DNA from: Candidatus Omnitrophota bacterium
GTDB lineage: Bacteria > Omnitrophota > Omnitrophia > Omnitrophales > Aquincolibacteriaceae
DNA: 64,000 nt
Direction of reading: 5' to 3'
Assembly: GCA_019052695.1 (NCBI GenBank)
Contig: JAHQRI010000001.1
Coordinates: 7,755-71,754, forward strand
Within the stretch, counting starts at the first letter, position 1. Each line of letters begins with the position of its first letter. The notes beneath the pieces were generated by a model that saw only the letters and a program-made list of their open reading frames with translations, searched no databases and was not told the origin of the DNA. Below are positions 8,889 to 62,643 of the stretch, piece by piece. Made by a program: the position numbers and the translations under genes.

Positions 8889-9022
8889 TGGAGAGGTGGC
8901 AGCTCTGATTTTCTTTTAATTTTTGATAATAAAATCAGGACAGTCCTGCCTTCCAATAGTAAATTGATGATAGGCAGGGCAGCCACCGTCGAAATTTTGG
9001 CGGAAAAACTTAAAGTGAAAAC

Positions 9023-9265
9023 ATGTGGTACATCTATATTTTGCAAAGTGACAAGAGTGGCCGTTATTATGTGGGGTACACGGAGAACTTAGAGAAGCGC
9101 GTTCAAGAGCATAACAGCGGTAAAACAAAATCTCTAAAAGCGCATTTGCCGGTGCGTGTTATTTGTGTCGAAAAAAGACTGACGAAGCAAGATGCCTATC
9201 GTAGGGAAAGACAGATCAAAAGTTATAAAGGCGGGGAAGCTTTTAAGCGATTGTTGGGCAATTGA
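9023..9265 (+). CDS. GIY-YIG nuclease family protein (YhbQ/UPF0213-like)
   Basis: WYIYILQSDKSGRYYVGYTENLEKRVQEHNSG is a GIY-YIG core. 80 aa. Confidence 0.7.
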   Translation: MWYIYILQSDKSGRYYVGYTENLEKRVQEHNSGKTKSLKAHLPVRVICVEKRLTKQDAYRRERQIKSYKGGEAFKRLLGN

Positions 9266-9270
9266 GACGT

Positions 9271-9357
9271 GGAGGGATGGCAGAGCGGTCGAATGCGGCG
9301 GTCTTGAAAACCGTTAGGCGCGCAAGTGCCTCGTAGGTTCGAATCCTACTCCCTCCG
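9271..9357 (+). tRNA. tRNA-Ser (anticodon UGA)
   Basis: GGAGGGA acceptor stem. Anticodon loop cTTGAAa gives TGA. Long variable arm. T-arm GTAGG-TTCGAAT-CCTAC. No encoded CCA. Confidence 0.85.
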
Positions 9358-9720
9358 TTTGGTTTTATTATCGGACGGTCTTGCCACCGCCTGCGAAGCG
9401 GCGGGGTCCCGTCCGGAGGCGGAAAAAAAACCGGAGGAGTCGTAAGGCTCTCAGAGGTTCGCCACCGCCAGAGAATCGGCGGGGTCTCGCCGAAGTTCAG
9501 GCGGGAAATCCTACTCCCTCCGTTTGGTTTTATTATCGGACGGTCTTGCCACCGCCTGCGAAGCGGCGGGGTCCCGTCCGGAGGCGGAAAAAAAACCGGA
9601 GGAGTCGTAAGGCTCTCAGAGGTTCGCCACCGCCAGAGAATCGGCGGGGTCTCGCCGAAGTTCAGGCGGGAAATCCTCTCGCCGCCGCTCGATTTTAGTT
9701 GTCGGGCGGTCCTGCGAGAG
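9342..9720. repeat. 165-bp tandem direct repeat, 2 full copies plus a diverged partial third, each starting with the tRNA 3' end
   Basis: aatcctactccctccgtttggtttt... recurs at 9342, 9507 and, diverged, 9672. Each unit also holds two GC-rich ccgcc/ggcgg mini-hairpins. Confidence 0.85.
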
Positions 9721-9733
9721 ACAAAAGGGATTT

Positions 9734-10501
9734 ATGACGATGAAACCGTGGTATGAAGCCTTGTTCGAGAATTACGCCCGGAAATACGACCAGGAAAGTT
9801 TCGTCCGGGGGACCGACGGCGAATGTGATTTTATCGAACAGGAGATCGCTTTCGGCAGGTCCTGCCGGATCCTCGACATCGGTTGCGGTACCGGACGTCA
9901 CGCGATCGAATTGGCAAAAAGGGGATATGAAGTGACCGGCGTTGACCTTTCCGGGAATCAGATCAAACGGGCGAGGGAAAAGGCGCAAGAAGCAGGGGTG
10001 ACCGTTGACTTCCGGATACAAGATGCCCGTCACCTTCCGTTTGACGGTGAATTTGATCTGGCCGTGATGCTCTGCGAGGGCGGGTTTTCTCTTATGGAAA
10101 CAGATGAGATGAACTTTGAGATCCTCAAGAACGCAACAAAAGCGCTGAAGGATAAAGGCAAGCTCATTTTCACGGCGCTGAACGGATTGTTCCCGCTGTT
10201 CCATTCCGTCAATGAATTCTATAAGGCGGTCCAGAAAGAAGGCCAGTCCCAGTGCGGGGAGTGTTCTTTTGATCTGATGACGTTCCGCGATCATAACACC
10301 GTTATTTTCGAGGACGACTCAGGCAACAAAAAAGAACTGAAGTGCAATGAGCGCTATTATGCGCCCAGCGAGATCACGTGGCTTTTAAAAACGCTGGGAT
10401 ATGGCAAGATCGATATTTTCGGCGCGAAGCTGGGGGCTTTTTCGAGGAACGACAGATTGACGACCGAAGATTTCGAAATGCTCGTCGTCGCTCAGAAATA
10501 A
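9734..10501 (+). CDS. class I SAM-dependent methyltransferase
   Basis: ILDIGCGTGRHAIELAKRGYEVTGVDLS is SAM-binding motif I. Confidence 0.8.
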   Translation: MTMKPWYEALFENYARKYDQESFVRGTDGECDFIEQEIAFGRSCRILDIGCGTGRHAIELAKRGYEVTGVDLSGNQIKRAREKAQEAGVTVDFRIQDARHLPFDGEFDLAVMLCEGGFSLMETDEMNFEILKNATKALKDKGKLIFTALNGLFPLFHSVNEFYKAVQKEGQSQCGECSFDLMTFRDHNTVIFEDDSGNKKELKCNERYYAPSEITWLLKTLGYGKIDIFGAKLGAFSRNDRLTTEDFEMLVVAQK

Positions 10502-13715: not shown

Positions 13716-13792
13716 GCGCAACGCACAACGCGCAACGGTCAACGATAGATAGGCACAAAGCCACACGCCACATGCCACACGACGACAAGAGC
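13716..13792. repeat. heptamer repeat block: 4 CGCAACG-type units then CACAAAG/CCACACG units (left inverted-repeat arm)
   Basis: cgcaacgcacaacgcgcaacggtcaacg ... cacaaagccacacgccacatgccacacg. Confidence 0.6.
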
Positions 13793-13795
13793 TGA

Positions 13796-14308
13796 CTAGT
13801 CGTCGATGCTTTTATAGAGTTTCCAGAGCAATCCTCCAACCTGGTCCCTTGTTTCGAAGATGGCCCGATGTTGTTCGCTCCCCACGTAGCCTAGCTTTAA
13901 AGCGAAGTCGAGTAAATATTCGATCTCCGATAGAGATCCTAGAGCTATGTTGACGTATTGTTTAAATTCTTTTCGGTTTTGGCGGCCATTTCCTTCCACA
14001 AGGTTCGTAGGAACGGATAAAGCAGCGCGACGCATCTGGGATCGGACGCCGTAAGTTTCATCCCGAGGGAAGGATTCGGTGGCCTTGTAGATTAAGAAGG
14101 CTAGTTCGTCGGCCCTTTGCCACGCGATCAGTTTCTTGTAACCTTTTTCCCGTCGCGAAACTTCCGCGGGAGTTCCTTCTGCCGGAGCAGATTGCTCCAC
14201 AAGATTTTCTTGGGGCTTGGAGACTGAGCCATAGGGTTGTTTTTTAAAGAAAGTCTTGTGGCTTTGTGGCGTGTGGCCTTGTGGCATGCGATGATCCGTT
14301 TCGTTCAT
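13796..14308 (-). CDS. four helix bundle protein (23S rRNA intervening-sequence protein family)
   Basis: Core LIAWQRADELAFLIYKATESFP ... LSEIEYLL. AAGGAG SD 6 nt ahead of the ATG. The N-terminal ~60 aa, including PQGHTPQSHKT, are read through the right inverted repeat. Confidence 0.7.
   Translation of the reverse strand: MNETDHRMPQGHTPQSHKTFFKKQPYGSVSKPQENLVEQSAPAEGTPAEVSRREKGYKKLIAWQRADELAFLIYKATESFPRDETYGVRSQMRRAALSVPTNLVEGNGRQNRKEFKQYVNIALGSLSEIEYLLDFALKLGYVGSEQHRAIFETRDQVGGLLWKLYKSIDD
14254..14288. repeat. right inverted-repeat arm (CTTTGTG/GCGTGTG units), reverse-complement-related to 13753..13783
   Basis: cttgtggctttgtggcgtgtggccttgtggcatgc. Confidence 0.55.
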
Positions 14309-30839: not shown

Positions 30840-31156
30840 CGGCTCCTTCGGGTGGAGGACCGATGCTTTGCCCGGCGCCCGATCTTTTCAGTGCTTTTTG
30901 TTCCAATGACCCCTCCATTATATAGTCCGAAAAACCAAAGAAATCAATAGGCCAAAAGGATCCGTGGCCGGATGCAGCCGGCTAAAAGCTGTTGTAACAA
31001 TTTATAACAAGACTTATTGATAGCTTTCAATATTTAAAAAAGGAATGAATTATTTTGTAAATCCTTTTTCAAATACTTGAATTCTTTTTTTTATATGGTA
31101 ACTTTTGCGTGAGTTTCATATCAATTGTCCCGAAAGGCGAGACGCTGACCCAAATC
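30840..31156. promoter_or_regulatory. AT-rich divergent promoter region between the two paralogs
   Basis: Sharply AT-rich against the GC-rich background. Several TATAAT/TTGAAT-like hexamers on both strands. Confidence 0.4.
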
Positions 31157-34100
31157 ATGGATTTTCCCTTAAGTGTGAAACGGTCCCTAGCGGTGACGGT
31201 GGCGGTCTGTTTTTTCGTGACCAGTCTGCCCGTCTCTCGTTCGTTCGCTGCGGCGGCTGTAGAGCCCTTCAGGGCACCATCCCAGCTGGACATTCCCATG
31301 GCATGGGGCAAGGTGACGGACATTGTCCGCCAGCCAACCGAAAATTCACCGCTTTTGATCCACATCCAGGAAGCCCACGCCAATTACGACGCTCAAAGGA
31401 ACATCCGGGATCTATTAAAGCATCTTGCCGAACACTACGGGGTCCGGTTGGTACTTCTGGAAGGCGCGGGCAATCAGCTTAATCCGGATCTGTTCCGATT
31501 TTTTCCCGATGAACCCGTGCTGCAGCAAACCGCGAACGACAAGCTCATGCGGGCGGGATTGCTTACCGGTGCCGAGACATTTTTGATCGACGAAGGAAAT
31601 GCCTCGAAAGCGGAAGGGTGGGGCGTTGAAAGGGCCGATCTGTACGCCAAGAACCGGGAGGATTTTAAGCAGGTCTACGAAGGCCGCAAGCTGTCCGCGG
31701 GATTTCTGGAAGATTTTTACCTTCGCTGGCAAAAATACGCATCACTTTTTTTGAGTAAGCCTCTCAGGGAATTTTTGTCCAAAGAGACTGCCTTTGAAGA
31801 GGATACATTGCCTCTCGCGGACTGGATGAACTTTCTTAGAACAGCGGCAGCACGGGAATTGAATATTGACCTCGAGAATGTTCGGGAACAGGCCGATTGG
31901 CCGGTTCTTGTCCGCTATTTCCGTCTCAAAGCGATCGACCCCAAGATCGACGTGCAAAAAGTCGAAGCGGAAAAGAAGGCATTTTTTGAACAAGTTCAAA
32001 AAATCGTAACTCGTTCCTCGGGACTCGGGACTCGAGAAACAAAGGATTCAAACAAGTCCCGAGGAACTAGTCTCGAGTCTCTTTTAGCAGAAGTTGAAGC
32101 GATCCTTGAACAGGCGAAAACGCACGACCTGCCCCTCTACAAAACCCGTTTCGTTTTTGAAAGATTGCTTGACCGGCTTCCGGAGGATTTTTCTTTCGAT
32201 ACTTATCCGGCTCTCCGGCTTTATCTCCAGCAGATCGTCCTTATGAGTGAACTTCAAGGGGATGCTTTGCAGGAGGAGATCAAGACCCTGAGCGGTAAGC
32301 TGACGGAAGTTCTCAGTGAGACAGAAAAAGACAGACGGTTTGCAGCGATCCTGCGCGATTTCCGGCTCCTTAAAAAACTTTTCCGGCTTGAGTTAAACCG
32401 TGGTGAATACCGTGACATTCTCATGCGCAAGATCACGCCCGGAAAAATTCTTCAGGAGCTCAGGGCCCAGGACCCAAAAGCGGAGGATCTCCCCCAAGAC
32501 CCTTCAGCCAGGTTCCGAAAGCTCGAAGCTCTTTATGGGACGGCAACCCGCTTTTACGAGGGAGCGATCGAGCGTGAAGGTGCGATGATGGAACGGGTGT
32601 TTGCAAGGATGCAGGAGCAGAAACAGACCAAGGCGGTGCTGATAACCGGCGGTTTTCACACCGAGGGCCTCAAGGAAAAAGCGGTCCGCGAGGGAAGCTC
32701 CTACATTGAGATCACGCCCCACATCGGCGAGATCACTTCTCATGATCGGGAAAATTATTTACGGGCCCTGCTTGGCAGAAATCTCGGCGTAACACCTGAC
32801 TACCGGTCAAGCGGGCGCAACGCCCAACGCGCAACGCAGGACAAAACCGTCGCGCTTCGAACATTGAGCGTTGAACGAAGCGAAATCGCGGCCCTGCTTC
32901 GTGGCGATATCCCTTTTTTAAAAGAAACGTCACGGGCTTGGCGCAGAGAGCTGGCAGAATTCGGAGCGGTTCTTTCCGAGCATTTGAGACAGATCACCAG
33001 CTCCGAAAAAGCCCGGGGGGCGGTCAACCACTACATAGCCGGGGCCGTTCGTGTTCCGTCTTTTGACGCCATGAAACGCCGTTCCGAAACGCGGGAGAGC
33101 GTTAAAGAGCTATCCGGGAAGGTCCTCAGAATTCCGGAACTGATGCTCCAACTTCCGCTTGAACCCGGGACTGAAGCCCTGGAAGGAACGCGCCGCATGG
33201 TAGGGCCGCTTGAAAAGGCGGCGCGACTGTTGGAGCCCCTCCTGGAGAGTTACGGGATCGGCAGCATTTGGCCTCACAACAGTCTTTTTGAAATGGGGGA
33301 ACTGTCCACCCGGATCCATCAGGTCCCCGACTCTGGCGAACACTTTCTGGTTTCCACGAACGGTAAAACGACCGTCAGGGTCGCGGGGTATGAAACAAAA
33401 CAAAAGGCTCTGGGGAACCGGGTTCTCCGCGACGACAAAGGGAACGCTTATTCTATTCGGGGAATGCGGAAGCTCAATCCCCGTTTGTCGGATTCGGCAA
33501 CGGAACAAGGGAACGCCGCAAAAACGGCAGAGCAGCTCATCGCTTTGAACAGAAAAGCCCGCAGTCTCGGGATCCGGACCGTGGCGGATTTTATCCCTGA
33601 GCTCGCGCCGGAAGCGATCAATGATTACAACCTCGATTGGACTTTTCATGAAAAACTTTCGCCGGGGGAAACGCAGTATTTCAACAGTCTTCCGGAAGAA
33701 ATAAAACAGTCCTACATCAACAGCAGCGTTCGTAAATGGGGGGGCGCTTTCTTCGCCAGGAGGTTGGGAAAATGGGGCAATGAAGAGATCGCCATGGTCC
33801 GTCATTTTCCCGGTCTCGGGAGCGGGCAGAACGTGGACCAGGCGCTCCTTAATGTTTTTGTTCCGGCGGTACAGAATTATTACAAGGACTCGCTTCGCTT
33901 TCTCATAGATCTGGGCTTTGACGCGGTCAGGATCGATATGGCGTCCTATCTTCTCGGGAAGAACCTGATCCGGTTCGTGAACGACAAGGGCCTGAGGTCG
34001 GATGTGCCGATGGAAGGGGAGCCTTTGAGGGAGATCATCCGGTATGCCAAGGACTACGCGTTCCAAAAGGGACGTTCTTTTGAGGTCGTGGCCGAAATTT

Positions 34101-37100
34101 ATGACGAGGAAGACCGGAATGCCTTGATGAACACGGGTGTTGACGTCGGGACCGATGTTCGCACCTACGATAACAGTTTTTTTGAAGAGCTTTTCAGATT
34201 CTCCCAAGATCCAGAGGCCCCGGCGGCGGACCTCGCGAGAATGATCGTGGAAAAGATCCTTCATAAGCTCGGGGATCCCGAGAACCGCGAAAATTTTCTC
34301 GCTTATTTTTCAAACCATGATCAAACCCCTCTTGCGGTGATGGCGGATCATAACAAAGAGATCGGAAAGAACTTCTCGTTGGCCGGCGTGACCGCGCTTT
34401 TGCTTGTGGGGGCTTATCTGGCGGAACCTTTCCTCAGCTTTTTTTTGACGCTCCGGGATTCTCTGGGGCAACGGGGCGATATCCTGCCGACCGTCGGCGG
34501 GGACATCAAGGACCATCGGGCCGACCTTGGGGGGAGGCACGCGCATCCGTTCCTCGAAACATCTCGCGAACTGACCGTCAGGACACATATCGAAAAGTTG
34601 GAAACCGCGATCCGAAAATCGTTTGCGTCGAAATTCTTGAAAGAACTTCACGCGGCCGCGAAAGGGACGGGGCAGACTTACATAAGGTTTCTGGAGAACG
34701 AGGATCCGGGCCGCGTCGCGAGTTTGGGTTGGCGGACCGTAAGCGGGGAATGGGTGGTCTTCGCGGTCGATCTCAGGCCTCATCAGGGTCCGCTCCATCT
34801 CAAACATATCGAATCTCCGGTGTTTCCCAAGGAAGCAGGTTCTCTGCAGGAATGGGAAGCCAAGGACGCGCTGACCGGTTCCAGTTTCGGAATTATATTC
34901 AAACGAGAAGGAGAGGCGACCCATCCTAGGATCCGGAATATTTCGTTCGGACAGGAAAGCGCCAACTACCGGCTGATCGTAATTACCCCGAAAGAGCATA
35001 AGAAACCCACCGAAAAGGTCCGCAACGAAAGAAAGAGGATGAAAAACGCGAACCAATTGAAACCTAAGGTAATCAACGAGCTCGATAGCATTGCCCGAGG
35101 CAGCGCGAAGGGCTATGAGTTTTTGATGCACCCCGCTTTTGAAAATTACTCGAACGCGCACAAAAAACAAGCAAGGGCCTACTTGCAGTTGCTAGCCGGA
35201 TCCTCGAATGATCTCATGGACATTTTAAAAGGCGCCCAGGAATTTCTCCGGAGTTACTACGCTAACATTGAGCGCATTCGCGAGAAATACGAAGAGACCG
35301 AGGAAGAAGCGTCCTTCGCGGTCAAGAAAGGGCCGCCCCTGTGTTATTTTGGGGGAAAGGACTTTGAGGGTTTTGAAAAGTTGTCGCCCGCGGATTTTTT
35401 AGAATCCCAGGGGGTTTCCGTCGGGGAGCTAAAAAACAGCGAGGCCAAGTTCAATTTGAGACAAGCCATACCCGCGACTTCGAGAACATTGGTCTTGGGG
35501 AAAAGCCTCGAACTTCCCAGGGCGAAGTCTTTGAACGCGGAAACGCTGAACCAACTGCTCCGAAGCCAGGGAGTGGAATATATTTCTGACATCACAGATA
35601 TCGCGTTTTATAAAATTCCCCGCTCCGAATTGCGTCAGGGTGATTTGCTTCCTCGCGCAGTCTCCGGCCTGATCTCGGGGGTCGCCGGCGGCAGCGTTCA
35701 AACGGTCATGGAGCTGAAACGTTCCGAGCTAAGGGATGAGAAGTTCCGGGGTTCCTACGAAGTGACCGAAGATGACAAAGGGCGAATCGTGATGCCCGCG
35801 CCGCTCAGGAAAAAGATCGCCGAAGACCTCGTGGGTGAAGTTGAGAAATATACCGATGAGTTCGGGCAAGAGCAGATCCTGTTCCGGATCTGGGAGGCGT
35901 CCGCCTGGGAAGAGAATTTCAAACAGGGTCTTCCGAAAGATAAGACAAAAGCCAGGGCCTATAAGGATCGGGAGTATGCCCGGATCTTTGATGTGGAGCT
36001 TTATGGTGAGGCCGGAAGGCTGAATTTGGCCGAAGTTCGCGCCAGGGGTCTTTTAAGCGGACCCGGGACCAAGTTTTTAGTCCAAGGGGCCGGAGATTCG
36101 ATCATTCTCAAGCCCAAGACCGCGCGCGCCGAACTGCGGACAGTTTCCCCCAAAAGGGGGCTTGAAGCTTACACCGTGGTCAGCCGCCAATTAGAGGCCG
36201 GCCTGGACCGGAGTATTTTGGAAGAAGTCCGTAAAAGTTTAGCGGACCGTTTCTCCGGGATGGGGAAAAGCTGGATCCGGCGGTATGTAGGGCTTGTGGC
36301 CGAGTTGACATTGACCGGCGGATTGGGCGCTCTCATGCATGACCTTTTCCCGGCGTGGGCACAAGCTTTGGGGATCAAGAACAAAGACCGCAAGGGGCTG
36401 ATCGCGATCAATGCGATCTATGACAATATCAAAGGACAGCAATATGCCAAATATCTTCCCGATGAAGTCAGGCAGGGGAAGACGACTTTGGGAGAATATT
36501 TGCGCGGCGTTTTGAAACGCGATGAAAGCCTGAACCTTGCGTTCGGTATGGACTTCGGGGAAGATTTCCGCCGCAAGACCGCCGAAGAAAGGGCCTGGGC
36601 CGAGCAGTACGGAAATCCGGGATACAAGGAAGCGGCCCGGAAAACGGAGAATATCATCGGAAAGACCATCCGAGTGGATGTTTACCCGACCCAAACCCAT
36701 TTTAACCAGACGCCCAATTATTATATCGACGCTTACTTTCTTGACAGCGAGGGCAAGAAGGTCCACATTTTTGATGAAGTCTATCCCGACGCCCCGCACG
36801 GCCGCCCTAATCTTTGGCGTGATATTCACATGGCAGTTTACGGATGGGCCACCCAGCACTTGGTGCGCGAACTCCAGCAAAAAGGCGTTGTGAAGGACAA
36901 TATCCTCTTCGTGGACAATGAGGTTTTTGTGAGCACGCCGACGCCGCTGTTCCCGGACGCGGTCCACCATCACATCAACCACACGGTTTTTCGTCCCGGT
37001 CTCTACATGCCGAACGAAGCCTCTTATGAAATGCTGGGGTATCCCGAGATCCAGCGTAAATATATTACGAAGAACGGGAAGATCGACATCGTCAACGCCG

Positions 37101-40100
37101 TGGGGATATCGTCCCGCTTGATCACGGGGGTGGCGATCTATGAACATACGAAGGCTTTAGAAGAAGATGTGATGGCGGCCTTCCCCCATAAGCTGCAAGC
37201 TTTCAACAAGGACGGTGTCCGCAACACCAACGGTGTTTTGATGGAGCAATGGCAGCTGCCGGCTTTGAGGGACTTGATCAGCGCGCATAAAGAAAAACTC
37301 GGTTTAAAACCGCAGGCCGCGGACAAGAAAATTTTTGAGAAGATAACCGCTTCAGGACAAGAAATGGTCCTTGAAGAGTTCAAACAAAAAGCGGAATTTG
37401 CGAAGGCGACCGGAGTTCTCGAGCTTCTTTTGTGGCTCAAAGAGGACCAGAATTTTCCCGCATGGTTTGACGAGATCGGTCTGGCTTATGCGTCGCAATC
37501 CGGCCTGAAGAATATAGATGACCAGAAATTGGTCGAGGATTTCAGGGATGCGGTGGCCGCGGCGATGGTCGATCCCGCGGCATGGCAGGCACTCATGCAG
37601 CGGCAGGATCTTGTCTGGTTGAAAAACGCGTTGTTCGAAAATCCGATCCTTGCCAATGTCCGCCGGCAGGTACCCTATAAAGGGCCGGACAAATGGCTGG
37701 AGATCCTCGAGAAATTGAGGGTTGATCCGCAGGCGCTGGAAGAATTCAAACGGGACGCCCCGCGTGTGATCATCGGCGGCCGTGAATTTGGCGACGACGC
37801 GCACTGGATGTTCCTGAGGATCCAGTCGCTGGTGGAGGAACTGGGACTGAAGGACAAGATCGCGACGATCGAAGACTACAATATCTATATCGCCCCGGTC
37901 ATTTTCGGGGGTGTTTCAGGGTCGATGATGCTTTCGGACGAAAAGCTGGAAGCTTCCGCGACCAGCATGATGAAGGCGATGGCGAACATGGCGGCCCTGA
38001 TGGGGGTCTGGGGCGGGGCCAATCCCGAACTTTTTACGATCATTGATAAGAAGACAGGCCGTGAACTGAACGCCATCCGGGACAAGATCACTCACGATCA
38101 GCTGGTGGAAAAAATGGCGAGCGGGGAGTGGGAAGTCCCTAACGGATTTCTGGTCGCTTACAGCCAGGAGGAATACAGCAACCAAACGGGAGGGGAAAGG
38201 CGTCCTTCGACGGCCTCTCTCATTCAAAGCCTATACGATCTTAAAAAGACCTGCCGGGATCCTGGCAGCCGCCGCAACCTTCAATTTGCCGTGCTCCGGT
38301 CGACCCCCAATGTGGATATGGCTAAAGGACAGGCCATCGCCCACAAAGCGTTATGGGAAAAAACCATCCAGACCTTGCAAAAGGAAGACGAATTTTTTGA
38401 AAGCTTGGATATTTCAGCGGACGACGCGGAACAATTTCTCAAAAAATCACTTGCTCAAGAAGGAGGCCTGGAATTCCTTTGGCACGGCACGACCCAGGAC
38501 GCTTGGAATATTCACGGGATCTTGGGGTTCATTCAGGGATTCCGTCATCTGCGCATGAAAGGGAGGGAGAGTTACAACAGCGTTGCTTTTCATGCGTACA
38601 ATGGAAAAAAAGGGGACATTTTCACATACCTTGAAAAATTCTTCGAAGGGTTCGATGAAACCTTCATTCCCGTGACGCGAAAGCTCAAAGCGCTTTCAGC
38701 CCGGGCGCAAAAGGCGGGATCCCCGCAGGACAAAGTCCGTGCTAATTTGGAAGCTTTGGAGCTCGTCGAACGGCTTGCGGTCGCGATATCGTTCCATCTT
38801 TTCAAGCACTATGTGAAGACCGGCGATAAAAAAGCAGAGGCCTATTGGGCCAATCCTGCGGTCCGCGAAAACCTTTCGATCTATTTGGAGAAAAACGGCG
38901 TTCCTTTCAAATCGATCGCCAAGAATATCCGCGGGTATGCGGTGGACATAGAAGGACAGCGATATATCGTCGCGCTCAATTTCGGCGAGTTCGGTTTCCC
39001 GGGCGAAAAAGGGGAGAAGGCCTGGGGTTCCTTTTATGGCCGTGAGGCGCTCGATCATCTTTTAGAAAAACCGGAAGAAACGCACATTTACCAGGTGCTT
39101 GATGCGATCTCTGGGGAAGTTTATGGGAAATATTCTTTGCGCCAAATGGTCGAAACAATCCGGATCGGCGTCCCCTCTTTGGGCGCCCAGGTCCTGCAGG
39201 TCGTGGATTCCGGGGAACGGACCGAAGCATCAGAGGCTGCGCTGAGCGGGGATGTCCTGGGATATCTTGAAGCGTTAACGGCAGGCCGTCTTGTGAGCGA
39301 TGAGGTGCCGATCACACAGCTCCTTTTCAGGCAGGTCGTCGACGAAGGGACCGTTGTTGCCGGAAAGGGAGAGGAGGCCGGTCGAAAAAGGATCGTTGAT
39401 CCCACGAAGATGGAACCGTTGTTGAGCCGTGTGACGGGTCTTTCCAGGAAAGAGGCGGTCGAAAAATTCGGAGAAAAAGGGATCCCTCCCGTTATGGCCT
39501 TTATTGCGGTCCTGTCCCCGGCCGGTCTCGAGCAGATCAGGGATTGGAATGACGAGGTTTATACCGCGCTGAACGGGGTGATCCATCAGCCGCAAATTGA
39601 AAAGCTTCTTCAGGACGGCGCTCTTTGGTTCCACAAAACCGACCGCGCAAGCGCGCTGGTCATTTCAAAAAGCCTGGACGGGAAAAATGTGGTCGTCCCC
39701 ATCCATTTTTCCGCGACTCCTTTCCGTTCCGTTGACGGCAAGGCATGGTTCCGGGTTTCGGATTTTGACCGGTTGGGCGTTTTGCTTTCCGAAAACGGCA
39801 GGTACCAGGCCCGCAATGTTCTTGCCAATAAAGTCTATCCGCTTCAGCACGATCAAGAAAAGATCTCCGGCGAGAAGTGGTCCCTCGGCGTTCCCGTCGC
39901 GGTGCCGGAAGACCTGGGCGTTTTTCACGAACCTCTTTATCACTTTCAGGTCCTCGAGATCATTCCCGCCGTTTCTGAGCCGGTCCAGCGCTCGGAAATG
40001 CGGGAAGGTATCACGACCATTCCGAGGACGACGGAGGCCCTTATTGAAACGAATCGATCCATGGGCGGGGGAGCGGTACGGGGATTCCGCGGGGTCACGG

Positions 40101-40717
40101 ACAAGATCACCGGCGGGATCTGGTCGCTTACGGTCTACGCCTTCCATGCCGTAGAACTCACAGCATCGTTCTTTGGCCTGACAGCTGCCCCGGCCCCTGA
40201 GGCTTTTGATATCGCTGCGGTCCCTGCGACCCCTGAGGAAAAGAAACGTTTTGACGACGCCCGAAAGGTCCTGTTCGGCGGAAAGGCCTACGGGGATTCG
40301 GACGTTCTGATCCTTGCGCCGGAGTTCGGGGTCGATCTTGGCGCGGCGCTCCTCATGCGGAAGGTTGCCGGGGACGTTCCGGTCGCGGTGCTCGTGCGGG
40401 ATGATGCCGACCGCCGGTTCCTTGACCAGATCAACTCCGAGCTTGAAGCGGGGAACCGCCCGTTGATCTTTGCGGCAGGGACGCTCCGTGAGGCCGCCCA
40501 GTACCTGAGGAGGGCGGTGCGCGGGAAGATGAATATCAAGCCGATGGTTTACGCGGGAGAGAATAACCCTCAAGCCGATCTTTTGTTGCAGCAGTACGGG
40601 GACGCGGTGATCACCGTCACGCAGGGTATGTTCCGGAACTTCCTCAGCCTTGCCGGGATCAGCGAGACCGTGACCCGATTGCGCGACGAGTACCTCGCGC
40701 TTGCGCGCTCGGCGTAA
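31157..40717 (+). CDS. giant (about 3,186 aa) exported multidomain protein: TraB/GumN-like N-module, GH13-like domain, GT35 alpha-glucan phosphorylase-like domain
   Basis: 9.6 kb open frame. Signal peptide MDFPLSVKRSLAVTVAVCFFVTSLPVSRSFAAAA. GH13 regions GFDAVRIDMASYL, FEVVAEIY, FSNHDQ. GT35 motifs LTGGLGALMHD and EASATSMMKAMANMAALMGVWGG (PLP lysine). Confidence 0.6.
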   Translation: MDFPLSVKRSLAVTVAVCFFVTSLPVSRSFAAAAVEPFRAPSQLDIPMAWGKVTDIVRQPTENSPLLIHIQEAHANYDAQRNIRDLLKHLAEHYGVRLVLLEGAGNQLNPDLFRFFPDEPVLQQTANDKLMRAGLLTGAETFLIDEGNASKAEGWGVERADLYAKNREDFKQVYEGRKLSAGFLEDFYLRWQKYASLFLSKPLREFLSKETAFEEDTLPLADWMNFLRTAAARELNIDLENVREQADWPVLVRYFRLKAIDPKIDVQKVEAEKKAFFEQVQKIVTRSSGLGTRETKDSNKSRGTSLESLLAEVEAILEQAKTHDLPLYKTRFVFERLLDRLPEDFSFDTYPALRLYLQQIVLMSELQGDALQEEIKTLSGKLTEVLSETEKDRRFAAILRDFRLLKKLFRLELNRGEYRDILMRKITPGKILQELRAQDPKAEDLPQDPSARFRKLEALYGTATRFYEGAIEREGAMMERVFARMQEQKQTKAVLITGGFHTEGLKEKAVREGSSYIEITPHIGEITSHDRENYLRALLGRNLGVTPDYRSSGRNAQRATQDKTVALRTLSVERSEIAALLRGDIPFLKETSRAWRRELAEFGAVLSEHLRQITSSEKARGAVNHYIAGAVRVPSFDAMKRRSETRESVKELSGKVLRIPELMLQLPLEPGTEALEGTRRMVGPLEKAARLLEPLLESYGIGSIWPHNSLFEMGELSTRIHQVPDSGEHFLVSTNGKTTVRVAGYETKQKALGNRVLRDDKGNAYSIRGMRKLNPRLSDSATEQGNAAKTAEQLIALNRKARSLGIRTVADFIPELAPEAINDYNLDWTFHEKLSPGETQYFNSLPEEIKQSYINSSVRKWGGAFFARRLGKWGNEEIAMVRHFPGLGSGQNVDQALLNVFVPAVQNYYKDSLRFLIDLGFDAVRIDMASYLLGKNLIRFVNDKGLRSDVPMEGEPLREIIRYAKDYAFQKGRSFEVVAEIYDEEDRNALMNTGVDVGTDVRTYDNSFFEELFRFSQDPEAPAADLARMIVEKILHKLGDPENRENFLAYFSNHDQTPLAVMADHNKEIGKNFSLAGVTALLLVGAYLAEPFLSFFLTLRDSLGQRGDILPTVGGDIKDHRADLGGRHAHPFLETSRELTVRTHIEKLETAIRKSFASKFLKELHAAAKGTGQTYIRFLENEDPGRVASLGWRTVSGEWVVFAVDLRPHQGPLHLKHIESPVFPKEAGSLQEWEAKDALTGSSFGIIFKREGEATHPRIRNISFGQESANYRLIVITPKEHKKPTEKVRNERKRMKNANQLKPKVINELDSIARGSAKGYEFLMHPAFENYSNAHKKQARAYLQLLAGSSNDLMDILKGAQEFLRSYYANIERIREKYEETEEEASFAVKKGPPLCYFGGKDFEGFEKLSPADFLESQGVSVGELKNSEAKFNLRQAIPATSRTLVLGKSLELPRAKSLNAETLNQLLRSQGVEYISDITDIAFYKIPRSELRQGDLLPRAVSGLISGVAGGSVQTVMELKRSELRDEKFRGSYEVTEDDKGRIVMPAPLRKKIAEDLVGEVEKYTDEFGQEQILFRIWEASAWEENFKQGLPKDKTKARAYKDREYARIFDVELYGEAGRLNLAEVRARGLLSGPGTKFLVQGAGDSIILKPKTARAELRTVSPKRGLEAYTVVSRQLEAGLDRSILEEVRKSLADRFSGMGKSWIRRYVGLVAELTLTGGLGALMHDLFPAWAQALGIKNKDRKGLIAINAIYDNIKGQQYAKYLPDEVRQGKTTLGEYLRGVLKRDESLNLAFGMDFGEDFRRKTAEERAWAEQYGNPGYKEAARKTENIIGKTIRVDVYPTQTHFNQTPNYYIDAYFLDSEGKKVHIFDEVYPDAPHGRPNLWRDIHMAVYGWATQHLVRELQQKGVVKDNILFVDNEVFVSTPTPLFPDAVHHHINHTVFRPGLYMPNEASYEMLGYPEIQRKYITKNGKIDIVNAVGISSRLITGVAIYEHTKALEEDVMAAFPHKLQAFNKDGVRNTNGVLMEQWQLPALRDLISAHKEKLGLKPQAADKKIFEKITASGQEMVLEEFKQKAEFAKATGVLELLLWLKEDQNFPAWFDEIGLAYASQSGLKNIDDQKLVEDFRDAVAAAMVDPAAWQALMQRQDLVWLKNALFENPILANVRRQVPYKGPDKWLEILEKLRVDPQALEEFKRDAPRVIIGGREFGDDAHWMFLRIQSLVEELGLKDKIATIEDYNIYIAPVIFGGVSGSMMLSDEKLEASATSMMKAMANMAALMGVWGGANPELFTIIDKKTGRELNAIRDKITHDQLVEKMASGEWEVPNGFLVAYSQEEYSNQTGGERRPSTASLIQSLYDLKKTCRDPGSRRNLQFAVLRSTPNVDMAKGQAIAHKALWEKTIQTLQKEDEFFESLDISADDAEQFLKKSLAQEGGLEFLWHGTTQDAWNIHGILGFIQGFRHLRMKGRESYNSVAFHAYNGKKGDIFTYLEKFFEGFDETFIPVTRKLKALSARAQKAGSPQDKVRANLEALELVERLAVAISFHLFKHYVKTGDKKAEAYWANPAVRENLSIYLEKNGVPFKSIAKNIRGYAVDIEGQRYIVALNFGEFGFPGEKGEKAWGSFYGREALDHLLEKPEETHIYQVLDAISGEVYGKYSLRQMVETIRIGVPSLGAQVLQVVDSGERTEASEAALSGDVLGYLEALTAGRLVSDEVPITQLLFRQVVDEGTVVAGKGEEAGRKRIVDPTKMEPLLSRVTGLSRKEAVEKFGEKGIPPVMAFIAVLSPAGLEQIRDWNDEVYTALNGVIHQPQIEKLLQDGALWFHKTDRASALVISKSLDGKNVVVPIHFSATPFRSVDGKAWFRVSDFDRLGVLLSENGRYQARNVLANKVYPLQHDQEKISGEKWSLGVPVAVPEDLGVFHEPLYHFQVLEIIPAVSEPVQRSEMREGITTIPRTTEALIETNRSMGGGAVRGFRGVTDKITGGIWSLTVYAFHAVELTASFFGLTAAPAPEAFDIAAVPATPEEKKRFDDARKVLFGGKAYGDSDVLILAPEFGVDLGAALLMRKVAGDVPVAVLVRDDADRRFLDQINSELEAGNRPLIFAAGTLREAAQYLRRAVRGKMNIKPMVYAGENNPQADLLLQQYGDAVITVTQGMFRNFLSLAGISETVTRLRDEYLALARSA
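32815..32878 (+). repeat. CGCAACG heptamer hairpin element inserted in-frame in the giant CDS
   Basis: gcgcaacgcccaacgcgcaacg ... cgttgaacg. Encodes SGRNAQRATQDKTVALRTLSVERSE between the N-module and the GH13-like region. Confidence 0.6.
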
Positions 40718-40826: not shown

Positions 40827-41735
40827 ATGTCCAAAACATCTTCCCAACTCATGCGCGTAGGGCACAGTCCCGATGCTGACGATGCGTTCATGTTCTACGC
40901 GCTGGCCAAACAAAAGATCCCGATGCGCGGGTTCGAAGTTGAACACGTCATTGAAGACATCGAAAGTTTGAACCAGCGCGCGTTCCGAGGGGAACTGGAG
41001 GTGACGGCGGTTTCCTGCCACGCGTACGCTTATTTGGCCGACCGGTACGCGGTCATGCGTTCCGGGGCAAGCGTCGGGGACAAGTATGGGCCCATTCTCG
41101 TACAACGCCCAACGCGCAAAGCGCAACGAGGAAACAAAAAAGCAGGCAAAGAACGTTGCGCGTTGAGCATTGCGCAAAAGAGAATCGCGATTCCGGGCAA
41201 ATTAACGACGGCCTATTTAACCCTTCAGCTTTATGCGTTGACCGTTGACCGTTGTGCGTTGCGCGGATTTGAACCGGTTTTCATGCCCTTCGACAAGGTC
41301 CTAGAGGCCGTCAAAAACGGAGAAGTGGACCTCGGGCTCGTGATCCACGAAGGACAGATCACGTTCGCGGAACACGGTCTTGAAAAATTTTTGGACCTTG
41401 GCACTTGGTGGCATGAGGAAACGGGACTGCCGCTGCCGCTTGGTGTTGATATCATCCGCCGTGATCTAGGCGAGGGTGTAATGAGGTCTTTTGCGGGCCT
41501 CTTCAAAGAAAGCATCGAATATGCCTTGTCTCACCGTCAGGAAGCTTTAGAATACGCGCTGCAGTTCGGCCGTGGGATCTCGCGAGAACTCAACGACCGT
41601 TTCGTTGGGATGTATGTCAATGACCGGACGGTGGATATCGGGAGGGACGGAGAGGCGGGGTTCCGCGCATTACTTGACCTGGCATACCAGCATAAGATCG
41701 TGCCCAACAAAATTAACTTTGATTTTATCGGTTAA
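40827..41735 (+). CDS. MqnA/MqnD-family (menaquinone via futalosine) protein
   Basis: MRVGHSPDADDAFMFYAL matches the GxSPCPNDTFxFxAL-type N-terminus. Start may be the ATG near 40851. Two heptamer-repeat insertions in-frame. Confidence 0.55.
   Translation: MSKTSSQLMRVGHSPDADDAFMFYALAKQKIPMRGFEVEHVIEDIESLNQRAFRGELEVTAVSCHAYAYLADRYAVMRSGASVGDKYGPILVQRPTRKAQRGNKKAGKERCALSIAQKRIAIPGKLTTAYLTLQLYALTVDRCALRGFEPVFMPFDKVLEAVKNGEVDLGLVIHEGQITFAEHGLEKFLDLGTWWHEETGLPLPLGVDIIRRDLGEGVMRSFAGLFKESIEYALSHRQEALEYALQFGRGISRELNDRFVGMYVNDRTVDIGRDGEAGFRALLDLAYQHKIVPNKINFDFIG
41099..41176 (+). repeat. CGCAACG heptamer hairpin element in-frame in the MqnA/D-like CDS; a second, arm-only copy at 41235..41265
   Basis: acaacgcccaacgcgcaaagcgcaacg ... 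cgttgcgcgttgagcattgcg. Encodes RPTRKAQRGNKKAGKERCALSIAQKR. 41235..41265 gcgttgaccgttgaccgttgtgcgttgcgcg encodes ALTVDRCALRG. Confidence 0.6.
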
Positions 41736-42598: not shown

Positions 42599-42871
42599 AT
42601 GGAACTCTTCATGAAGATCTCGGCGATCGCGGGGGCGATCCTTCCGCTTTTTAATATCCCGCTCGTCCTCAGGATCATTCAGCGCAAGTCGGCGGACGAC
42701 ATCAGCCTCGTCTGGGTCTTCGGAGTGTGGGCCTGCATCCTCTTGATGTCTCCGGCGGCTTTGCTTTCCCCGGACGTTGCATTCCGCTTGTTCGGGGTCA
42801 CGAACCTTGTTTTTTTTACGGCCGTCGTGCTTGCGACTGTTAAATACCATCATCGGTTCAAAAAGAAATGA
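42599..42871 (+). CDS. SemiSWEET-like PQ-loop sugar transporter
   Basis: NIPLVLRIIQRKSADDISLVWVFGVWACILL matches the PQ..RxxKTKSxxDISL core of bacterial SemiSWEETs. Three TM helices, about 90 aa. Confidence 0.55.
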   Translation: MELFMKISAIAGAILPLFNIPLVLRIIQRKSADDISLVWVFGVWACILLMSPAALLSPDVAFRLFGVTNLVFFTAVVLATVKYHHRFKKK

Positions 42872-42872
42872 C

Positions 42873-42937
42873 GTGCAACGTTCAACGGTCAACGCACAAC
42901 GTGAAATCGGGGCGTTGCGCGTTGCGCCTTGCGCGGG
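42873..42937 (+). repeat. CGCAACG heptamer hairpin element, intergenic
   Basis: gtgcaacgttcaacggtcaacgcacaacg tgaaatcgggg cgttgcgcgttgcgccttgcgcggg. Confidence 0.65.
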
Positions 42938-42943
42938 TTTAAT

Positions 42944-43333
42944 ATGCATCCTACCTATAAAAAAATGCTCAAAGCGCTTCAGAACAAAGAAGCTAATCGG
43001 CCGTCTGGGGTGAAAGAGGCGGACGATTGGGAGCTGTATATCCTGAGGTGCGGCGATAATTCTTTTTACACGGGGGTCACCAACAACCTCGAGCGGCGTC
43101 TCAAAATGCACCAAACGGGCAAGGCCTCACGCTACACCCGTGTCCGGCGGCCGGTGGAGATGATCTACCATGAAAAATGCGGCACCCGGACGCAGGCTCT
43201 TGTGAGGGAATGTGCGGTGAAAGAGCTGCCGCGGAAGAAAAAAGAAGAACTTATTTCGGGTGCAACGCGCAATGCACAACGATCAACGAAAAAGCGAAAA
43301 AGAAAGCGTTGCGCTTTGCGCGTTGTGCGTTGA
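42944..43333 (+). CDS. GIY-YIG nuclease family protein (YhbQ-like), second copy
   Basis: WELYILRCGDNSFYTGVTNNLERRLKMHQTGKASRYTRVRRP. The last ~25 codons (ATRNAQRSTKKRKRKRCALRVVR) are encoded by a heptamer repeat element. Confidence 0.65.
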   Translation: MHPTYKKMLKALQNKEANRPSGVKEADDWELYILRCGDNSFYTGVTNNLERRLKMHQTGKASRYTRVRRPVEMIYHEKCGTRTQALVRECAVKELPRKKKEELISGATRNAQRSTKKRKRKRCALRVVR

Positions 43334-60237: not shown

Positions 60238-62578
<2,341 letters not shown>

Positions 62579-62582
62579 TTTT

Positions 62583-62643
62583 TTCGCTCGACGCTCAACG
62601 GGCTCGCGCGCAACGTTTTCGTTGTGCGTTGCGCGTTGTGCGG
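62583..62643. repeat. CGCAACG heptamer hairpin element in the atpA-atpG intergenic spacer
   Basis: cgctcaacgggctcgcgcgcaacg ttttcgttg tgcgttgcgcgttgtgcggg. Confidence 0.6.

Follow-up and report, generated by a model that had tools for sequence, protein, structure and literature searches.

Introduction

Genes for tRNAs are classic landing sites of integrase elements, and the locus described here raises the question whether repeated 3' ends of a tRNA gene are traces of such elements or of something else. It lies in a stretch of 64,000 nucleotides (nt) of a Candidatus Omnitrophota bacterium (assembly GCA_019052695.1, contig JAHQRI010000001.1, positions 7,755 to 71,754), which was analysed as a whole and is called the window. 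A gene for tRNA-Ser(UGA) is followed there by a tandem array of 165-nt units and preceded by a small gene for a predicted nuclease of the GIY-YIG family. The repeat unit represents a second tRNA-Ser(UGA) gene, now dead and of an older or foreign allele; it covers the 3' two-thirds of that gene and is interrupted by copies of a hairpin insert, here designated E. Comparison with other loci and with a phage system suggests that the array is the debris of a GIY-YIG homing-type cassette which was amplified by recombination in the T loop, a reading to which we give an even chance.

The features of the locus are the following (window coordinates; E1 and E2 are the two E inserts of a unit):

8890..8902, + strand: displaced copy of a tRNA-Ser 5' end (GGAGAGGTGGCAG), with 2 differences from the live tRNA (GGAGGGATGGCAG)
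8903..8978, + strand: insert "F", a pair of hairpins (ctgatttt..aaaatcag; cagtcctgcctt..ataggcagg), located where the displaced 5' copy would have its D arm
8979..9022, + strand: diverged rest of that 5' copy, with D loop and anticodon-stem 5' strand; its homologue in locus L137, aligned by eye, is "ACAGAGCGGTCGAATGCGGCGG"
9023..9265, + strand: GIY-YIG nuclease gene, 80 amino acids, catalytic domain only (Pfam PF01541, E=2.6e-16)
9271..9357, + strand: live tRNA-Ser(UGA) (ARAGORN 9270-9358, tga; Rfam tRNA 9271-9357, 59.5 bits)
9342..9506, + strand: repeat unit 1, opening with the last 16 nt of the live tRNA
9358-9383, + strand: unit 1, trailer and remnant of D loop and anticodon stem, ending ..ACGGTCTTG
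9384-9423, + strand: unit 1, insert E1
9424-9461, + strand: unit 1, AAAAAAACCGGAGGAGTCGTAAGGCTCTCAGAGGTTCG, the anticodon 3' side, variable arm and T-arm 5' side of the old allele, ending ..CAGAGGTTCG
9462-9506, + strand: unit 1, insert E2, after which AATCC.. comes next
9507..9671, + strand: repeat unit 2, with copies of E1 (9549-9588) and E2 (9627-9671); missing from the near-identical assembly L001
9672..9687, + strand: 3' end of the dead, older tRNA-Ser allele (AATCCTCTCGCCGCCG)
9688..9714, + strand: beginning of another unit, with trailer and a remnant of the anticodon stem, ..GGGCGGTCCTG
9734..10501, + strand: class I S-adenosylmethionine (SAM) methyltransferase gene, which bounds the array

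The array and its repeat unit

The tRNA-Ser(UGA) gene is the sole tRNA gene that ARAGORN and Rfam detect in the window, and its acceptor stem is GGAGGGA/TCCCTCC. Downstream, the repeat finder TRF reports a tandem array at 9342-9715 with a period of 165, 2.3 copies and a score of 674, together with a nested period of 78. The two full units are identical at 165 of 165 positions, and the identity extends by 0 nt to the left and by 6 nt (AATCCT) to the right, into the third copy. The 16-mer AATCCTACTCCCTCCG with which the units open starts at A58 of the T loop and has two exact occurrences in the 64 kilobases (kb). A preliminary description made from the letters alone had placed the end of the tRNA at about 9357, the 16-mer again at 9507 and a diverged form at 9672, all of which is confirmed by ARAGORN, Rfam, TRF and the comparison of units. 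The third copy (9672-~9718) agrees with the start of a unit at 36 of 49 aligned columns, so that the similarity reaches about 30 nt beyond the tRNA-like 16-mer and into the trailer; the homology of its part at 9688..9714 ends at the anticodon-loop point where full units start E1. The ccgcc/ggcgg mini-hairpins were noticed earlier in the filler, that is the 149 nt between the repeated tRNA ends; their motif GCCACCGCCnnnnAAnCGGCGGGGTC is found four times in the 64 kb, each time in the array, where 0.03 occurrences are expected.

When E1 and E2 are removed, the filler together with the end of the third copy aligns to positions ~25-88 of tRNA-Ser and so reaches its 3' end. The alignment score is 44-49, compared with a mean of 13 and a maximum of 24 for shuffled sequences. 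If 9672-9687 is joined across E2 to 9450-9461, 26 of 27 positions are identical to the T arm and acceptor of the live tRNA-Ser of the related locus L228, and the variable arm of the filler (GAGTC/GGCTC) is intact and different from that of the live gene. Because of the alignment score, the match to L228 and the plan of the loci L147 and L228 (see below), the filler is identified as a 5'-truncated dead tRNA-Ser of another allele. The filler is therefore neither foreign cargo nor an att (attachment site) arm. In an Rfam search of the intact filler at E<=10 neither a second tRNA nor a known family was found, and the sub-threshold matches (sX4, plastid) stem from the embedded tRNA. An origin of the filler from tRNA-Ser(GCU), a gene present in locus L123, was ruled out by sequence inspection.

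The hairpin insert E

E is a GC-rich double hairpin of 40-45 nt in the window and of 30-45 nt across loci, for which two folds are possible, a pair of hairpins or a single long one. E1 is located exactly in the anticodon loop, CTTG^AAAA (G35^A36), and E2 in the T loop, TTCG^AATCC (G57^A58). The ends of E show no duplicated flank or core, which makes them a poor fit to the products of tyrosine or serine recombinases. Its arms stay paired through double changes, for example from C-G to T-A in L147 and L125. In the window and 230 comparison loci, matches to an E profile are confined to tRNA-Ser loci: four in the window, two in L001, four in L147 and two each in L228 and L229.

Two relatives show that E is a clean insert, since its flanks in both are identical to their own live tRNA. 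Behind the live tRNA of L147 follow five parts, GGAACGGTCTTG, a 45-nt insert, AAAACTGTTAAGCCCGCAAGGGCTTCGGGGGTTCG, a 40-nt insert and AATCCCTCTCCCTCCG; the flanks of E1 and E2 comprise 35 nt and 18 nt with 100% identity to the live gene. L228 has the same plan with one insert, flanked by 41 nt and 30 nt identical to its live tRNA. L147 furthermore possesses an independent tandem array of the same kind, which includes a unit with a recombinant E joining the anticodon-loop junction straight to the T-loop junction.

At other loci E occurs in the D loop, after GCATA in L231 and after GGCAG in L147, and otherwise after CTTG and TTCG. The motifs 5' of the inserts are thus not all alike; hairpins are present, and a target duplication was not seen. 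E does not behave as a tRNA intron, because the dead copies are devoid of the 5' acceptor strand and the D arm, so that its removal gives no complete tRNA, and no intron family was found in the Rfam search of the locus. E may serve as a target-site disruptor, a nuclease handle or a leader of the open reading frame (ORF), or it may be a miniature element. The earlier suggestion of a tiny non-autonomous element can be kept for E inside the filler, but not for the filler as a whole, which is tRNA-derived.

The GIY-YIG gene and the displaced 5' fragment

According to the preliminary description the repeats were stacked with no cargo and no integrase nearby. The second part stands: neither the tested ORFs of 0-24 kb nor the genes that surround the locus gave a Pfam match to an integrase or recombinase, and the gene tables of related loci list none. 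The first part overlooked the GIY-YIG gene, whose ORF ends 5 nt before the live tRNA-Ser. The GIY-YIG domain comprises residues 1-67 of the protein and is its single domain, without a separate DNA-binding domain. Among 25 homologues there is no or nearly no variation at residues Y5, Y16, G18, R26, H30, N31 and E62. The best matches in the PDB are UPF0213 BH0048 and an Slx1 homologue (1zg2, 1ywl, 7wme), and a weak, sub-threshold NCBIfam match to group I intron endonucleases reaches 22 bits versus a cut-off of 56. No relatives of the protein were found in viral contigs.

Upstream of this gene lies the displaced 5' end of a tRNA-Ser, which matches the allele of L139, L143 and L227. Its D-arm position is occupied by insert F, which is present also in L137 (3618-3694) and L143 (4128-4215) after the GGCAG of the displaced 5' copy. 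Changes in the arms of F retain pairing across the three lineages (ctgat/atcag vs ctgacc/ggtcag), and F may be a second kind of loop insert. The diverged remainder at 8979..9022 ends with AAAAAC.. and a spacer up to the ATG. The segment 8979-9003 was considered as a degenerate E and dropped after comparison with L137.

The 3' end of the nuclease gene deserves a separate remark. The C-terminal tails HGEIA, NGGFA and DGGVA of GIY-YIG homologues look as if they were encoded by the tRNA 5' end (alignment A3), and in L231 (1738-1752) and L228 (3828-3857) the ORF reads into the adjacent tRNA-Ser 5' end and takes its last residues from tRNA sequence.

The cassette in relatives and in other phyla

The comparison loci L137-L147 and L227-L230 were found via the conserved pairing of tadA with tRNA-Ser(UGA); the homologues of the flanking methyltransferase and of tadA are annotated as Candidatus Omnitrophota. 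A metagenome scan with tadA returned mostly distant relatives, as the motif is universal, and yielded L147 and L148 as useful loci. A contig scan with a 22-mer of the tRNA end gave, among the matches listed, mostly Desulfobacterota-type loci and one Omnitrophota locus; it supplied the cross-phylum cassettes, and no homology to the filler was found among the loci listed from it. The placement of the methyltransferase beside the tRNA is not conserved in relatives (no synteny).

The order partial tRNA-Ser 5' copy, GIY-YIG gene, live tRNA-Ser is found in seven lineages (window, L228, L147, L129, L023, L125 and L231), which belong to four groups of metagenome-assembled genomes (MAGs), namely Omnitrophota, Desulfobacterota-type, Eubacteriales and Falkowbacteria (candidate phyla radiation, CPR). 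The GIY-YIG proteins that adjoin tRNA-Ser in the six other lineages, with L229 alongside L228, are 32-67% identical to that of the window. L228 exhibits the undecayed form, in which tRNA positions 1-35 are followed by E, by AAAACCAGTT.. (the anticodon-arm 3' side), by the GIY-YIG gene and by a complete tRNA. In L129, L023 and L125 (Deltaproteobacteria-labelled, Eubacteriales and Thermodesulfobacteriota MAGs) the 36 nt of the 5' copy match the live tRNA at 100% identity; the nuclease shares 32-35% identity with that of the window. The cassette of the Falkowbacteria genome (L231) is located at a tRNA-Ser(GGA); its hairpin occupies the D loop, and the end of its ORF overlaps the tRNA.

The distribution among close relatives, whose tadA is 82-90% identical to that of the window, is patchy. 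L147 and L228 carry the cassette as the window does, L137 and L143 retain remnants of it, and L139 and L227 lack it. Alleles are mixed as well. The window locus carries three of them, GGAGAGG upstream, GGAGGGA/TCCCTCC in the live gene and ..CGCCGCC in the downstream dead copy. In L228 it is the two outer pieces, the 5' fragment (GGAGAGG) and the distal 3' end (CCTCTCC), that match each other and the allele of neighbouring lineages, whereas the inner live tRNA (GGAGGCG/CGCCTCC) differs from both. Such a mosaic is to be expected if a cassette bearing its own tRNA entered a resident tRNA gene by copying and the conversion tracts stopped close to the ends of that gene. A catalytic domain with conserved residues, patchy presence and mosaic flanks, as in cassettes of the phage seg type, are thus all found, and the idea that mobile or recombinogenic DNA has shaped the locus gains support.

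Could all this be neutral decay? An old tandem tRNA-Ser duplicate might have died and gained hairpin sequence in place, slippage or unequal crossing-over at AATCCT might have doubled the unit, and the GIY-YIG gene might be an unrelated neighbour. Tandem tRNA-Ser(UGA) genes and tRNA-Ser(UGA)-tRNA-Ser(GCU) pairs are indeed common, each copy is followed by a similar trailer, as duplication of a gene with its trailer would leave, and the junction microhomology suffices for slippage and would account for the duplication. Decay leaves unaccounted for that homologous copies of E are located in different loops (D, anticodon and T) and that an E-type hairpin lies in the partial 5' copy beside the GIY-YIG ORF in six of the seven cassette lineages, in four groups, the exception being the window. 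Furthermore, the dead copy is a different allele and not a decayed form of the live gene, and the outer fragments of L228 match each other rather than its live tRNA. We consider this explanation unlikely.

Two further loci show other arrangements of tRNA-Ser genes. In the Omnitrophota locus L123 (5746-6125), serS, tRNA-Ser(UGA), 197 nt and tRNA-Ser(GCU) follow one another without a GIY-YIG gene or partial tRNA copies, so that the tRNA context differs within the phylum. In L091 (3256-3900), a Thermodesulfobacteriota MAG, tRNA-Ser(UGA) and tRNA-Ser(GCU) are each followed by the same hairpin-rich trailer, and the GIY-YIG-like ORF after the second tRNA (39% identity over 46 amino acids) may represent a variant arrangement.

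Copy number of the unit

An identical GIY-YIG protein is encoded on two other assemblies, L001 and L002. Over 6.2 kb, L001 (GCA_040364335.1) shows 99.7-99.97% identity to the window, and its sole structural difference is one 165-nt unit fewer, that is tRNA, one unit and diverged copy. Because this near-identical strain has one unit fewer, the exact repeat is probably a recent duplication of one segment and probably polymorphic. The junction of the duplication is in AATCCT of the T loop, with a microhomology of 6 nt; head-to-tail identical units, microhomology at the junction and a copy number that varies between close strains, the marks of a tandem duplication, are all found. The two exact units are one segment duplicated and not two integrations, since L001 has one unit, and the serial integration and excision suggested earlier is not borne out.

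The Logan contig L002 (SRR28883300) ends at 2955, ..GGCGGTCTT, within the anticodon loop of the tRNA. This end lies one base before the insertion point of E and the cassette. A structural variant present there in the sample may be the cause.

A spurious second unit in the assembly, with one unit real, is the least probable of the explanations weighed here, and we think it very unlikely. In its favour are the 100% identity of the copies, the origin of the sequence from a metagenome bin, the single copy of L001 and the break of L002 inside the tRNA. Assemblers, however, usually collapse exact tandem repeats rather than create them, and L147 carries an independent array of the same type. The models of unit number can be told apart by the junction that follows E2, E2|AATCCTACTCCC versus E2|AATCCTCTCGCC, and assembling the former requires that this junction is present in the reads. 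If the second unit were spurious, only the claim about copy number would fall and the anatomy would stand.

A different element between tRNA 3'-end repeats

A different element of 160-190 nt, designated type-2, is enclosed by exact 16-23 nt repeats of the tRNA 3' end in L139, in L227 and distally in L228:

L139:3671-3850, type-2 element
L227:3644-3826, type-2 element
L228:4047-4250, type-2 element

A tRNA origin of the filler was rejected for L139 and L227, where the alignment score is 13 against a shuffle mean of 14. The consensus fold of the element shows strong covariation, with double changes at 14 of 54 pairs, and consists of a long hairpin followed by a closing stem that encloses two hairpins. 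The closing stem is formed by the repeated tRNA end and an upstream anti-sequence (GGGAGGATTC x GAATCCCTCC). Type-2 elements leave some room in this clade for two further explanations of the repeats.

The first, and the one put forward in the preliminary description, is that the repeats are att sites (attL, attI, attR) left by serial integration and excision of an element with a tyrosine or serine integrase, or by a cis-mobilisable remnant. An exact 16-mer is indeed present twice and starts at A58 of the T loop, as a crossover within a loop would require; repeats from mid T loop to the tRNA 3' end are known from the Dehalococcoides ssrA islands and from attB sites of the Ms6 type in the T loop, and the comparison of the same tRNA-Ser locus in relatives, proposed earlier as a check, revealed such repeats in L139, L227 and L228, where they flank DNA that is not detectably tRNA-derived. 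The integrase that should accompany them was found neither in the tested ORFs of 0-24 kb and the genes around the locus nor in the gene tables of the related loci. In the window, the filler is tRNA-derived and so is not element DNA unrelated to the target gene, the similarity runs past the core into the trailer, E ends without a duplicated core, and the units are identical, hence one duplication. Scans of viral contigs detected only whole tRNA-Ser genes with this 3' end, in phage tRNA arrays, with no partial copies resembling attP and no E motif. An origin of the array from att sites is thus improbable.

According to the second explanation the array functions as a structured RNA, be it a processed tRNA trailer or a small RNA, in which the repeated 3' end acts as a module for pairing or processing. 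The covarying type-2 structure, in which the downstream repeat takes part, and the compensatory changes that conserve the hairpins of E would agree with it. Folded in its entirety, the window unit is only slightly more stable than shuffled sequences (z -1.9 for one strand and -2.3 for the other), no Rfam family beyond tRNA matches, the content of the unit varies by lineage, and the copy number varies between near-identical strains. We regard a functional RNA as slightly less probable still than att sites.

Hairpin inserts in tRNA paralogues were observed also in a Clostridia MAG (L121:1780-2340) and an Aminicenantia MAG (L093:2210-2560 and 2730-2935). In both, a full tRNA-Ser(UGA) paralogue is located just upstream of the live gene; that of L121 has its own copy of a promoter-like upstream region, and L093 shows a similar repeat. 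Long hairpin inserts split the D and T loops of the paralogues, and in L121 also the anticodon and variable arms. Both MAGs have conserved inserts in the D loop and the T loop, with compensatory changes between them, and no Rfam family matches. L093 has a third partial copy downstream, which ends in the exact tRNA 3' end.

Proposed mechanism

If the array is the debris of a GIY-YIG homing-type cassette, the module would comprise a displaced tRNA 5' fragment, the small GIY-YIG gene, the live tRNA-Ser and a dead tRNA 3' part with E. The enzyme would break tRNA-Ser genes within two loops, the anticodon loop at CTTG^AA and the T loop at TTCG^AA, and repair from a cassette-bearing copy would bring in the nuclease gene together with a replacement tRNA part and thereby spread the cassette. 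The displaced halves of the previous tRNA would stay on both sides and, with solo copies of E, form the debris. The 165-nt duplication would stem from unequal recombination, with AATCCT of the live T loop and the AATCCT behind E2 of the dead copy as partners, and the stimulus may have been a break that the nuclease made in the T loop. In this way the cassette would keep breaking and rebuilding the tRNA-Ser gene in several bacterial phyla. The sequences show the anatomy of the locus, the positions of the inserts, the mixture of alleles, the difference in copy number and the association across phyla; the involvement of the nuclease is proposed here by analogy with the phage enzyme SegB, and its specificity, homing and a role of E are likewise proposals.

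Several points weigh against this reading. The protein is an 80-amino-acid catalytic domain without the separate DNA-binding domain that would provide site specificity, unlike characterised homing GIY-YIG enzymes. The live tRNA retains intact loop sites and should therefore be a target too. The homology arms of 13-36 nt are short for RecA-dependent repair. The upstream copy of the window has no E after CTTG, where it was apparently deleted (GGCGG|AAAAAC). An exact repeat of the tRNA 3' end is present downstream also in L139 and L227, which have no GIY-YIG gene, and the filler there is not detectably tRNA-derived. Outside Omnitrophota, about 120 tRNA-Ser(UGA) loci were sampled among the matches listed, and just 3 of them have the cassette. 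Finally, the difference between one and two copies rests on two short-read assemblies, and L001 may be a collapsed array.

A bolder proposal, which we hold to be rather doubtful, is that E and the small catalytic-domain-only protein form a new prokaryotic mobile pair. A structure-specific nuclease would insert or mobilise the hairpin at G^A steps in tRNA-Ser loops, the spare tRNA part would keep the host alive, and solo copies of E would be non-autonomous derivatives or footprints.

Other features of the window

Numerous short arrays of mutually related 7-nt repeats (CAACGCA, GCGTTGA, GCGTTGC, CGTTGAC, GCGCAAG, CGTTGTG) are scattered over both strands:

13719-13781, 32818-32837, 41103-41265, 42871-42935, 43306-43332, 61650-61669 and 62620-62642, both strands: 7-nt repeat arrays

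A single ORF of 3202 amino acids extends over 31109-40717 on the + strand. A protein of the 23S rRNA-intervening-sequence or bAvd-like type (PF05635, E=4e-33) is encoded at 13796-14305 on the - strand and also in L139 (5688-6140); it lies beside rlmN, and this is conserved in the clade.

Comparison with known systems

The genomic islands at tRNA and tmRNA genes with stacked 3'-end repeats (Dehalococcoides ssrA, PMC3146451; Ms6 T-loop attB, PMC1762012) share with the window the direct repeats from mid T loop to the 3' end. In contrast to the islands, no integrase was found at the window locus, the spacer is tRNA-derived, the units are identical copies of one segment, and the similarity reaches the trailer. 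The same signature of repeated tRNA 3' ends thus seems here to arise from something other than an integrase, and such repeats should not be scored as integrase att sites unless the intervening DNA has been inspected.

E may be compared with the single-strand transposons of the IS91 and IS200/IS605 types and their miniature derivatives: it is built of hairpins, lacks a target duplication and is located directly 3' of CTTG in the anticodon loop or TTCG in the T loop, with other motifs in the D loop; IS91 targets CTTG or GTTC and has subterminal palindromes. E differs by its length of 30-45 nt, compared with derivatives of IS91 in which 89 and 82 bp of the two ends suffice for transposition, by the absence of a visible HUH transposase and by its confinement to tRNA-Ser loci in the window and the comparison loci. 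Group I introns with homing ORFs in bacterial tRNA anticodon loops also combine an insertion in the anticodon loop with a GIY-YIG ORF. The window locus has no ribozyme; its tRNA is restored by a duplicated part of the gene and not by splicing, and a complete tRNA follows the ORF. The small GIY-YIG proteins of the UPF0213, YhbQ and Slx1 type have the same architecture of a catalytic domain only; they are not known to have a link to tRNA genes. No description of the cassette was found in Rfam or in the searched literature, and a GIY-YIG-associated tRNA-Ser cassette is apparently undescribed.

The closest model is SegB of the phages T4 and T6, a free-standing GIY-YIG homing endonuclease in tRNA clusters that is enriched beside tRNA genes, which cleaves inside tRNA genes at RAWTSGAAC, a motif of the T-loop type, and causes co-conversion of flanks as well as recombination-dependent tandem amplification of a tRNA-containing segment (PMC2330249; PMC13096335). 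In both systems a GIY-YIG gene lies beside tRNA genes, and GTTCSAWTY, the reverse complement of the SegB motif, fits GTTCGAATC in the window. The window cassette differs in being located in cellular chromosomes, with no relatives found in viral contigs, in encoding a protein of only 80 amino acids that is a predicted nuclease known from sequence, and in carrying a partial copy of the target tRNA together with a double hairpin. If the link to the nuclease is true, it would suggest a function for a widespread subfamily of small orphan GIY-YIG proteins and a mechanism for the horizontal replacement of essential single-copy tRNA genes, and homing and amplification of the SegB type at tRNA genes would extend from phages to cellular chromosomes.

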